DNA from: Candidatus Nomurabacteria bacterium
Lineage (GTDB): Bacteria > Patescibacteriota > Minisyncoccia > Phycocordibacterales > UBA9973
Direction: 5' to 3'
Length of the DNA stretch: 56,494 bases
Assembly: GCA_943356675.1 (NCBI GenBank)
Contig: CALRFQ010000003.1
Coordinates: 1 to 56,494, forward strand
Program-made: the position numbers and the translations under genes
Notes under the pieces: generated by a model
Told to the model about the DNA's origin: nothing
The model's database searches: none
What the model saw: only the letters and a program-made list of their open reading frames with translations
In this document: positions 13,778 to 26,979 of the stretch, piece after piece
Position numbering within the stretch: the first letter of the stretch is position 1
Layout: every line of letters starts with the position of its first letter

Positions 13778-14299
13778 TTATTTCGCTAGATAATTTTTAT
13801 AACCGATTTCTTCCAATTTCTTTCCTTTAGCTTCCACTTCCGAACTCATTTTATTTTTGTAGGCTATAAATTTTTCATTCAAATCACTGTCAGATAGTGC
13901 GAGGATTTGTATAGCGAGTATTCCAGCATTCTTAGCAGCATTTATGCCCACTGTAGCGACTGGCACTCCGGGTGGCATACCCACAGTAGAGAGAAGTGAA
14001 TCAAGTCCGTCGAGAGTCTTCGCTTTCACTGGCACACCGATAACAGGAAGTGTCGTGAGTGAAGCACACACACCAGCAAGGTGTGCTGCACCGCCAGCAG
14101 CTGCAATAATTACCTTTATACCGCGGTCTACTGCTCCTGTAGCATATGCGTGAACCACACTTGGCGCACGATGAGCTGAGGCGACTGTCATTTCAAAAGC
14201 TACTCCAAACTCCTCAAACACCTTAGCTGAATCAGACATTACCTCCAAATCTGAGTCCGAACCCATAACAATACTAACTAATGGTTTATTTGTATTCAT
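13778..14299 (-). CDS. purE: N5-CAIR mutase / AIR carboxylase
   Basis: MGSDSD, SAHR, AGGAAHLAG, PVIGVP, MPPGVPVATV. Confidence 0.96.
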   Translation of the reverse strand: MNTNKPLVSIVMGSDSDLEVMSDSAKVFEEFGVAFEMTVASAHRAPSVVHAYATGAVDRGIKVIIAAAGGAAHLAGVCASLTTLPVIGVPVKAKTLDGLDSLLSTVGMPPGVPVATVGINAAKNAGILAIQILALSDSDLNEKFIAYKNKMSSEVEAKGKKLEEIGYKNYLAK

Positions 14300-25256: not shown

Positions 25257-26633
25257 TTATTTACAATCAAGCATTATCACATCCCCTGCCATTGGGCTCT
25301 CGGTCTTCACACCGAGGTTGTCTGTGAGCTTTTGAGCAAGGAAAAGCGCTGCCTTCGGCTCACCCATAACTGTAAATACTTTCTTCACATGCTTCGCCAT
25401 TGGCTCTACGAACTCCACTAGGTGATCAGAATCCTTATGACCTGAATAACCACTAATCTTCTCTATATGAGCACGGACTGGGATATCTTCACCTTGAATA
25501 CGGAGCTTCTTACTACCTTCCTCTATCTGCCTGCCTAGAGTACCTACAGCTTGGTAGCCGATAAGTAACAAGGTGTCATTTTCATTTGGAAGATAATTCT
25601 TCTCGTGGTGGATTATGCGCCCACCATTACTCATGCCAGATCCCGCCATTATTATCTTTGGATTTGGAACATTTAAAATAGCTTTCGATTCATCAGTCTC
25701 AAGAGTAAGTTTTAGACCTTTAAAATTAAATATGTCATCCCCACTCGCTATTATCTTCTTGGCAGTTTCATTGAAATACTTTTCATTCTGCTTGTAAACA
25801 CGATCGAGCTTAATCGCAAGCGGAGAATCTAAGAATACTGGCATGACTGGCACAATCTTGTTCTCTATCATTTCATTCATTTCGAAAAGGAGCTCTTGAG
25901 TACGCTCGAGAGAGAATACTGGGATCATAAGTGTGCCACCGCGGACATAGTTCTCATTTATGATTTCTGCTAATCTCTTCTTTCTTATTTCACGATCTTC
26001 ATGGTTGCGATCCCCATATACTGATTCCATTATAAGATAATCTGCATCGTCTACCACTTCAGTATCGCAAAGCAGTGGTGATGGAGAATTACCAAGGTCA
26101 CCCGTAAATACAATCTTCTTGCCGTTGTATAAAATCTCAAGCATTCCTGAACCAAGAATGTGCCCAGAATCTTTAAAAGAAAATTGGAAACCGTGATCCA
26201 CATTTATAGATTCGTGGTATTCCACCCCTTCCCATATATTCATAGCAGTTTTAATGTTCTCTGCTGTATATATCTCGGCAAGGTGATGCACTATATCTTT
26301 CTGAAGTAAATGAGCAGTGTCCTCGAGCATTAACTGTGCAATGTCTTTCGTAGGTATTGTAGAAATAATTCTACCCTTAAACCCATCTGCAATTATCTTG
26401 GGAATGCGGCCTATGTGATCCACATGTGAATGTGTAATGAAAAGGATATCAATCTCAGCTGGATTATATGTAAATGGAGCCCAGTTTAGCTCGTCTGCAA
26501 TGCTCTCACCTTGCACTAGACCGCAATCTATCAAAAACTTTTTTCCATTACCTTCTAATAAGAAATTGGCGCCAGTAACTGTGCCTGCGCCGTTTGCAAA
26601 TGTGAGCTTAAGCTGTGTATCTTTAATATCCAT
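25257..26633 (-). CDS. MBL-fold beta-CASP ribonuclease
   Basis: DCG, THSHVDHIGR, SGHILGS, FTGDLG, MESVYG, GSGMSNGGR, YSGH. Confidence 0.92.
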   Translation of the reverse strand: MDIKDTQLKLTFANGAGTVTGANFLLEGNGKKFLIDCGLVQGESIADELNWAPFTYNPAEIDILFITHSHVDHIGRIPKIIADGFKGRIISTIPTKDIAQLMLEDTAHLLQKDIVHHLAEIYTAENIKTAMNIWEGVEYHESINVDHGFQFSFKDSGHILGSGMLEILYNGKKIVFTGDLGNSPSPLLCDTEVVDDADYLIMESVYGDRNHEDREIRKKRLAEIINENYVRGGTLMIPVFSLERTQELLFEMNEMIENKIVPVMPVFLDSPLAIKLDRVYKQNEKYFNETAKKIIASGDDIFNFKGLKLTLETDESKAILNVPNPKIIMAGSGMSNGGRIIHHEKNYLPNENDTLLLIGYQAVGTLGRQIEEGSKKLRIQGEDIPVRAHIEKISGYSGHKDSDHLVEFVEPMAKHVKKVFTVMGEPKAALFLAQKLTDNLGVKTESPMAGDVIMLDCK

Positions 26634-26755
26634 CCCGTTTAGAGATAGGAAGTCCTAAGACTTCCGTACCTTATTAATTATTGTTAATATTTCTATCTAA
26701 GTTTTGATTTTTATACTGCCCGATAAATACATAACTGAAAATCTCTAACGGGAGC
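26634..26755. mobile_element. Element family B, copy 2: insertion at the beta-CASP gene start codon
   Basis: CCCGTTTAGAGAT...ATCTCTAACGGG, CAT at 26631-3 and 26756-8; hairpin GGAAGTC-CTAA-GACTTCC. Confidence 0.75.
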
Positions 26756-26781
26756 CATACTTATATTATAGTATAAAAATG

Positions 26782-26945
26782 AAAAATCCTCTATTTTTTA
26801 CAATAGAGAATGTCTCATTTAGGGCTACCGGGGAATATTACCATAGCGATACGCTAAGTGGGTGCATGCATTCGACACCAAAGTGTACAATTGACGACTG
26901 CTCCCTTAAAAAAGTTGTTCTAGGTAATATACCTAAATAACCCTA
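26782..26945 (-). ncRNA. Candidate 6S RNA-like ncRNA
   Basis: Long irregular hairpin 26821-26944 with a central bubble, between a sigma70 promoter and a terminator (26782-26810). Confidence 0.6.
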
Positions 26946-26950
26946 CTTGA

Positions 26951-26979
26951 AGTATACGTGCTTTTTTATCCCCATGCAA
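26951..26979 (-). promoter_or_regulatory. Sigma70 promoter TTGCAT-N17-TATACT
   Basis: Near-consensus hexamers with a 17-nt spacer; predicted TSS at about 26944. Confidence 0.7.

Follow-up and report, generated by a model that had tools for sequence, protein, structure and literature searches.

The window, i.e., the whole stretch of 56,494 nucleotides that was analysed, contains on its minus strand a gene for a structured RNA, followed on its 3' side and in the same orientation by a gene for a CPSF/aCPSF1-like beta-CASP ribonuclease (25257–26633). The product of the latter carries the Pfam domains Lactamase_B, Beta-Casp and RMMBL, and its top NCBIfam matches are Cas14-MBL and aCPSF1, both under the cut-off. 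The two genes have separate promoters, and a terminator lies between them. The RNA gene is preceded by a -35 element, TTGCAT (26974–26979), and a -10 element, TATACT (26951–26956), both read from the sequence of the minus strand and separated by a spacer of 17 nt, just where a first-pass annotation of this DNA had placed a promoter TTGCAT-N17-TATACT. From the position of the -10 element, transcription is predicted to start at about 26946–26944. The RNA body of ~132 nt (26815–26946, minus strand) is delimited by covariance-model matches and by a fold with z = -5.1, and it is followed by the intrinsic terminator that had also been proposed, a AUUCUCUAUU...AAUAGAGGAU hairpin with UUUUU (26782–26811, minus strand) that is apparent from sequence and fold and has a counterpart in relatives. 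Judging from these signals, a transcript of the RNA gene would span 26946–26782 on the minus strand.

Simple consensus scans of the window picked up neither the promoter nor the terminator of the RNA gene, the former because its -35 element agrees with the consensus at only three of six bases and the latter because its A/U-rich stem contains too few G-C pairs. Their positions, however, are conserved. A TTG-type hexamer lies 17 ± 1 nt 5' of the -10 element in nearly all copies of the genus, and TATAnT is found at a constant offset in 37 of the 38 genus copies and in 28 of the best 30 order copies, where it usually ends ~4 nt before the RNA. A hairpin and T-run, with the T-run at most 50 nt downstream of the RNA, occur in 27 of the best 30 order copies. 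This positional conservation in relatives indicates that the signals are real and thus, as far as sequence can tell, the RNA gene is equipped with its own sigma-70-type promoter signals and its own intrinsic terminator. The claim that the locus holds no ORF stands for the RNA strand, where none of 30 aa or more is present, and fails for the antisense strand, where a 53-aa ORF runs from 26779 to 26940 (plus strand). This ORF was rejected as a gene, since homologues with lengths of 155, 156, 157 and 158 nt disrupt its frame.

For the minus strand of the region, the fold energy is -55.3 kcal/mol (z = -5.1; none of 200 shuffles was equal or better), while the plus strand of the same region gives z = -2.8. 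What had been described as a 124-nt hairpin is a rod of ~126 nt with a large central bubble, which starts 7 nt past the -10 element and extends from U26945 to A26820. Including the limits set by the two covariance models introduced below (R1, 26814–26946, 86.9 bits; R2, 26815–26946, 97.6 bits), the body measures ~126–133 nt. Every structural element named in the first-pass annotation is present on the minus strand, namely the AGGGTTA/TAGCCCT stem, a second stem, the bubble, the GGGAGCA/TGCACCC stem and the ACAC-TTTG-GTGT cap. The closing stem, which corresponds to the 'downstream duplex' in 6S terms, has ~23 nt per strand; its 5' strand (26923–26945) pairs with its 3' strand (26820–26842, GGUAAUAU...GUAGCCCUA), with UAGGGUUAU (26945–26937) facing GUAGCCCUA (26828–26820) and the bubble-adjacent AUAUUACC (26930–26923) facing GGUAAUAU (26842–26835). 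The 5' strand of the central bubble (26906–26922) is UAGAACAACUUUUUUAA, 17 nt that are A/U-rich, unpaired and open in RNAalifold, and it includes a CUAGA that is invariant within the genus. The apical arm (26860–26905, GGGAGCA...UGCACCC) is a short form of a variable arm, with ~20 bp, an invariant GGG/CCC base, a covarying distal helix and the cap ACAC-UUUG-GUGU at 26886–26875. Finally, the 3' strand of the bubble (26843–26859), the '-10-like' side in 6S terms, consists of A-C-U, a mini-hairpin of 5 bp (UAGCG-UAU-CGCUA, 26856–26844) and U; all these coordinates refer to the minus strand. Two further pairings were considered and rejected. A hairpin inside the 5' bubble (CUAGAA/UUUUAG), which appears in the minimum free energy fold, involves columns that are nearly invariant, and RNAalifold keeps this strand open. 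In many copies the 5' CUAG could pair instead with the 3' half of the 3'-bubble hairpin, an alternative that is unconserved and absent from, e.g., L049 and L056.

The search for homologues proposed in the first-pass annotation found the RNA across the genus and the order, with the central bubble conserved. A DNA search gave one strong match in each of 36 same-genus genomes and in one genome of another family, and a covariance model derived from 35 sequences of the genus (R1) located the RNA in 133 of 301 order genomes, representing 88 of 191 genera. Each of the 36 congeners has a single copy of the gene, as have all but one of the 133 order genomes in which R1 gave a match. The exception (G302) carries a tandem pair at C7:13751–13894 and 13987–14129 (56.1 and 37.6 bits), an arrangement that recalls the 6S-1/6S-2 pairs of Firmicutes. 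Within the genus, the 5' and 3' parts of the RNA are conserved and the apex is variable, with ~70 nt in most congeners (body ~157 nt) and ~45 nt in the clade of the window (body 133 nt).

The structure is borne out by covariation at both levels. From the genus alignment, RNAalifold recovered the closing stem, the open 5' bubble, the GGG/CCC arm base and the 3' hairpin, and 92.4% of the cells in 43 pairs, including the apical helices, are paired versus 36–44% in slid controls, with two-sided (compensatory) change in 17 pairs. In the order alignment of 49 sequences, which was fitted to the covariance model and is thus somewhat favourable to the structure, 91.9% of the cells are paired versus 35–43% in slid controls, and compensatory change affects 34 of the 43 pairs and 314 cells, versus 93 ± 10 in shuffles, none of 500 of which attained the observed values of pairing or compensation. 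Helices 1 and 2 of the closing stem are 94–98% paired, with compensatory change in 16 of their 20 pairs across the order, while the GG/CC at the base of the apical arm is invariant in all 49 sequences and all eight pairs of the distal apical helix vary on both sides. The 3'-bubble hairpin is 97–98% paired, with covariation at the inner pair (CG, UA, UG, AU, GC). Moreover, frequent G-U pairs, which would be A-C mismatches if read on the opposite strand, fix the coding strand as the minus strand.

Direct Rfam searches did not reach the window copy. At gathering scores, the whole window gave only tmRNA and two tRNAs, the 500-nt region of the RNA gene gave no match at E ≤ 10, and a search of the organism's whole genome with RF00013, the 6S family, returned no 6S candidate anywhere. 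The Rfam 6S search by which the first-pass annotation had proposed to check its reading was thus negative for the window copy even at E ≤ 10, and the link to 6S had to be built transitively via homologues. To this end, 40 homologue loci (~124 kb) were scanned against all 4,227 Rfam families and short miRNA-type matches to the apex were set aside. RF00013 was the sole family to span the full length of the homologues, or their bubble-and-arm core, on the right strand, covering model positions 32–155 or 43–144. Within the order, its scores range from 21.7 to 27.3 bits (L055, 23.4; L044, 21.7; L069, 27.3; L067, 22.1), all below the gathering score of 46.4 bits, which is a detection threshold and no biological property. 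Outside the class, they amount to 41.9 (L075), 38.3 (L080), 36.2 (L082), 35.0 (L079), 31.5 (L081) and 24.2 bits (L083). In two genomes, the best whole-genome match of RF00013 falls inside the R1 match on the same strand (G038, E = 0.0025; G084, E = 0.0044).

A second covariance model, R2, was built from the RNAs of this order alone and run on 401 genomes across the phylum. Outside the class of the window it gave matches in seven genomes, and in five of them (G352, G429, G447, G491 and G544) the locus and strand chosen by R2 are also those chosen by RF00013 (per-genome E-values, 1.5e-6 to 3e-3 for R2 and 1.5e-7 to 4e-5 for RF00013), with RF00013 scores of 31.5–41.9 bits at the coinciding loci. 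Reciprocally, R2 was run with filters off on 12 loci whose Patescibacteria 6S RNAs RF00013 detects, eight of them above the Rfam cut-off, and in 11 of the 12 its best match lay at the site and on the strand given by RF00013. Among the genomes searched, there was no case in which the two models pointed to different places in one genome. RF00013 itself gives matches above its cut-off in eight of the 401 Patescibacteria genomes and no match in ~28 sampled genomes of the window's class. Since R2 and RF00013 both model bubbled rods, shape alone could explain part of this agreement.

The sequences around the bubble provide a further point of comparison. The order's RNAs and 6S RNAs have in common a 5' strand of the bubble rich in A and U, GGGAG after it and, further on, CACCCACCU(A/G)G together with a small hairpin of the 3' strand, and the Rfam 6S consensus strings GGGag and caCCCACCUgg match the bubble-flanking sequences of the order's RNAs. 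On the 5' and 3' sides of the bubble, respectively, the consensus is aaaauuuuuauaauaGGGagccc and caCCCACCUggaAcagCaGG, homologue L055 has AAAAAUAUUAAUCAAGGGAAUCC and UACCCACCUGGGAUCAUCCUAGG, and the window RNA has AAGGGAGCAG and UGCACCCACUUAGCGUAUCGCUAUGG. In the alignment of consensus and homologue, aaaauuuuuauaauaGGGag and caCCCACCUgg...CaGG stand opposite AAAAAUAUUAAUCAAGGGAA and UACCCACCUGGGAUCAUCCUAGG. The CCCAC(C)U(A/G)G of the 3' bubble strand is common to the order's RNAs and the Rfam 6S consensus, and the 5' bubble strand lines up with its A/U-rich counterpart in the latter.

These results support the 6S-like reading of the first-pass annotation through both homology and architecture: a covarying rod, a single-copy gene, the agreement of R2 and RF00013, and the sequence flanking the bubble. 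Very probably, the region 26946–26782 (minus strand) encodes the 6S RNA (SsrS) of this organism in a compact and diverged form. With 6S RNA of the B. subtilis 6S-1 type it shares a rod composed of closing stem, large central bubble and apical arm, recovered by minimum free energy folding, RNAalifold and covariation alike; a 5' bubble strand that is open and A/U-rich and leads into GGGAG at the G-C base of the arm; a '-10-like' 3' bubble strand that contains, besides CACCCACCU(G/A)G, a small preformed hairpin; and a stand-alone, single-copy gene. Moreover, the same genome encodes a group-1 (RpoD-type) sigma factor. The differences lie in size, with a body of ~130 nt and an arm of ~20 bp versus ~180–200 nt for textbook, well-studied 6S RNAs, so that the earlier description as a 'compact' CPR 6S RNA is apt; in the score of the window copy, which is too low for RF00013 to report at any threshold; and in the 3' end, since the window RNA terminates at its own intrinsic terminator and may therefore require little or no processing.

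The 6S RNAs of other Patescibacteria classes (RF00013 scores of 73 bits in G472, 60 in G383 and 59 in G356) have the GGGAG...CCCACCUGG-hairpin core in common with the window RNA and are recognised reciprocally by the order-built R2, whereas they measure ~145–195 nt and those detected by R2 often lie directly before a tRNA gene and not before a beta-CASP gene. A tRNA gene follows the RNA after ~10–180 nt in L075, L079, L080 and L081, with an RNase P RNA gene ~1 kb further on in L080 and L083, and such an order of genes suggests 3' maturation by tRNA-processing enzymes in those classes. Ms1 RNA of Actinobacteria, which is much longer, binds core polymerase rather than holoenzyme. The likeness to Ms1 lies in its being a 6S-like rod that binds RNA polymerase (PMC9130861), but no Ms1 match arose in the Rfam scans and the signature of the window RNA is that of 6S.

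6S RNAs are described as rods with a central bubble, the 3' strand of which includes a '-10-like' region, and with a '-35-like' region in the apical arm; on the 5' strand of the bubble as template, the polymerase synthesises a pRNA that extends into the neighbouring helix (P2), and this pRNA, as a hybrid with its template, causes the 6S RNA to refold and to be released (PMC8876501). In B. subtilis 6S-1, the 3' bubble contains a small preformed hairpin and the 5' bubble is open, and a truncated 6S-1 with short arms still runs through the full cycle (PMC8876501). The window RNA possesses each of these parts. If it acts like 6S of E. coli and 6S-1 of B. subtilis, its rod would mimic an open promoter: the closing stem would take the place of downstream DNA, the 3' bubble strand that of the -10 region on the non-template strand, and the apical arm that of upstream DNA (the -35 side). 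The RNA would keep the RpoD holoenzyme off promoters by filling its active-site cleft until a rise in NTPs, when the polymerase would use the 5' bubble strand as template and transcribe on into the closing stem. The predicted pRNA would correspond to the plus strand from ~26917 or 26922 towards 26931, e.g., 5'-GUUCUAGGUAAUAUA, and a version begun at ~26917 (plus strand) would start with GUUCUAGG; the pRNA region proposed earlier, 26910–26930 on the plus strand, is thus a reasonable prediction. Synthesis of the pRNA would open AUAUUACC/GGUAAUAU, and the freed 3' strand would extend the 3'-bubble hairpin or, in relatives, pair with a repeated GAUAUU of the distal 5' bubble, whereupon the RNA would be released. 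When the pRNA footprint was blocked in silico, the window RNA lengthened its 3' hairpin with GGU of the freed strand, and in some relatives the freed strand paired with a repeated GAUAUU-like segment of the distal 5' bubble, comparable to a 'bubble collapse helix', the potential for which is weak in the genus of the window. On these analogies, we infer that the window RNA would bind RNA polymerase and template pRNA.

The 6S model does not account for the order-wide linkage to the beta-CASP gene. The latter lies 3' of the RNA gene in nearly all loci of the genus and, at the level of the order, in ~28 of 31 loci, which come from many families; the linkage is lacking in L048, L050 and L063. Same orientation, conserved adjacency and a terminator immediately before the beta-CASP gene would be expected of a cis-acting leader, either a riboswitch or an attenuator, that governs this gene via the terminator. 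However, the beta-CASP gene has a TATAAT of its own (26765–26770, minus strand), which in relatives takes the form (TG)nTATAAT, often TGnTATAAT, and lies 6–12 nt before the ATG. Its expression is thus not a matter of read-through from the RNA gene, and the RNA is not its leader; the short distance in relatives suggests, on sequence grounds, a leaderless or near-leaderless beta-CASP mRNA. Besides, extra ORFs of ~450 nt or inserted elements frequently intervene between the two genes, no conserved anti-terminator alternative was seen, the neighbours are others in some families and in other classes, and the homologues match 6S and no cis-regulatory Rfam family, all of which makes control by a leader very unlikely. 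In the window itself, an insert of ~125 nt (26634–26759), absent in L002, parts the TATAAT from the ATG of the beta-CASP gene. The extra ~450-nt ORF of L003, L004, L005 and L015 is hydrophobic-rich by eye and resembles that of a small membrane protein.

The same linkage may be read as a sign that a 6S-derived RNA now mainly serves the beta-CASP ribonuclease, as substrate, guide, decoy or in polymerase-associated cleavage, and no longer as a classical holoenzyme sponge. In gamma-proteobacteria, the synteny of ssrS and ygfA is a case of 6S linkage without a functional link, which counts against such a reading. RNase J1, a beta-CASP enzyme, matures and degrades both 6S-1 and 6S-2 in B. subtilis (PMC10578484), which would fit it. 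Each of the two genes nevertheless has its own promoter with the terminator in between, the unlinked loci exist, and the 6S RNAs of other classes precede a tRNA gene, so that a main role in the service of the nuclease is quite unlikely. A less exclusive proposal, namely that compact 6S RNA and adjacent beta-CASP nuclease form a functional pair in which the nuclease matures or destroys polymerase-bound 6S RNA or, like archaeal aCPSF1/FttA, acts on the polymerase itself, is unlikely as well; if true, it would mean a nuclease-driven reset of the polymerase in minimal cells, beside or instead of pRNA-driven release. Two other identities concern the RNA alone. Small SRP RNA (4.5S; RF00169) is likewise a single-copy hairpin RNA of similar size (~125 nt), and RF00169 was undetected in the organism's genome and in 61 relatives, which would leave room for a very divergent SRP RNA at this locus. 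The window RNA, though, lacks a conserved apical Ffh-binding motif: its apex, which in SRP RNA bears the conserved loops that bind Ffh, varies more than any other part and is longer in some clades than in others, and neither a GNRA loop nor an AGCA-type loop is present. The partner proteins are also undetectable. The genome contains no Ffh M domain (PF02978) and, in six-frame ORFs, no SRP-GTPase motifs (GxxGxGKTT, DTAGR); a real SRP54-type GTPase domain (PF00448) was found in none of 40 order genomes and in 14 of 14 control genomes, and PF02978 gave at most one weak match in 401 Patescibacteria genomes, with all 14 controls positive, in profile searches that used a first-look filter through which very diverged proteins could escape. 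In a lineage without detectable Ffh, FtsY and 4.5S RNA, the window RNA is not SRP RNA, and this identity is most improbable. That the locus is no gene and holds either a MITE, i.e., a palindromic element capable of transposition, or a hairpin due to chance is suggested by the wealth of ~120-nt hairpin repeats in this genome and its relatives and by the inserted element at 26634–26759, only ~25 nt beyond the RNA terminator. Against it stand the single syntenic copy per genome (36 of 36 congeners, 132 of 133 order genomes), by which the RNA is not a MITE, the lack of terminal repeats and target duplications, the compensatory changes, the strand-specific G-U pairs and the conserved promoter and terminator, and such an origin has next to no likelihood.

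Only a few global regulators have RNA polymerase itself as their direct target, and 6S RNA is one of them. As a kind, the window RNA is already known, since 6S RNA is widespread and some Patescibacteria classes hold Rfam-detectable copies; new is a compact and diverged 6S subfamily across a very large order, which current models overlook, and a literature search found no paper connecting 6S RNA with CPR, Patescibacteria or Saccharibacteria. The retention of a ~130-nt 6S RNA in a very large order of ultra-small, mostly uncultured bacteria would fill an annotation gap, and the resulting covariance model retrieves the RNA gene in at least 88 genera. Furthermore, these RNAs represent a natural 'minimal 6S', near the truncated constructs that are functional in vitro. 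Apart from 6S, the SRP pathway looks absent from the organism's genome and its relatives on the basis of sequence searches, and this absence, if confirmed by an independent method, would be more surprising than the 6S finding.

Some minor features concern individual homologues. Longer apices (L051, L055, L056, L057, L062, L066 and L070) display GAUGAG...CUGA, a kink-turn or box C/D-like arrangement that is missing from the short apex of the window RNA, and weak box C/D snoRNA matches on L055 reflect this motif. In L052 (G076), a sub-threshold match to WsnRNA46 (Wolbachia sRNA 46; 44.2 bits, E = 5e-6) at positions 1685–1801 corresponds to a long hairpin, possibly a repeat element, situated ~30 nt downstream of the 6S-like RNA.
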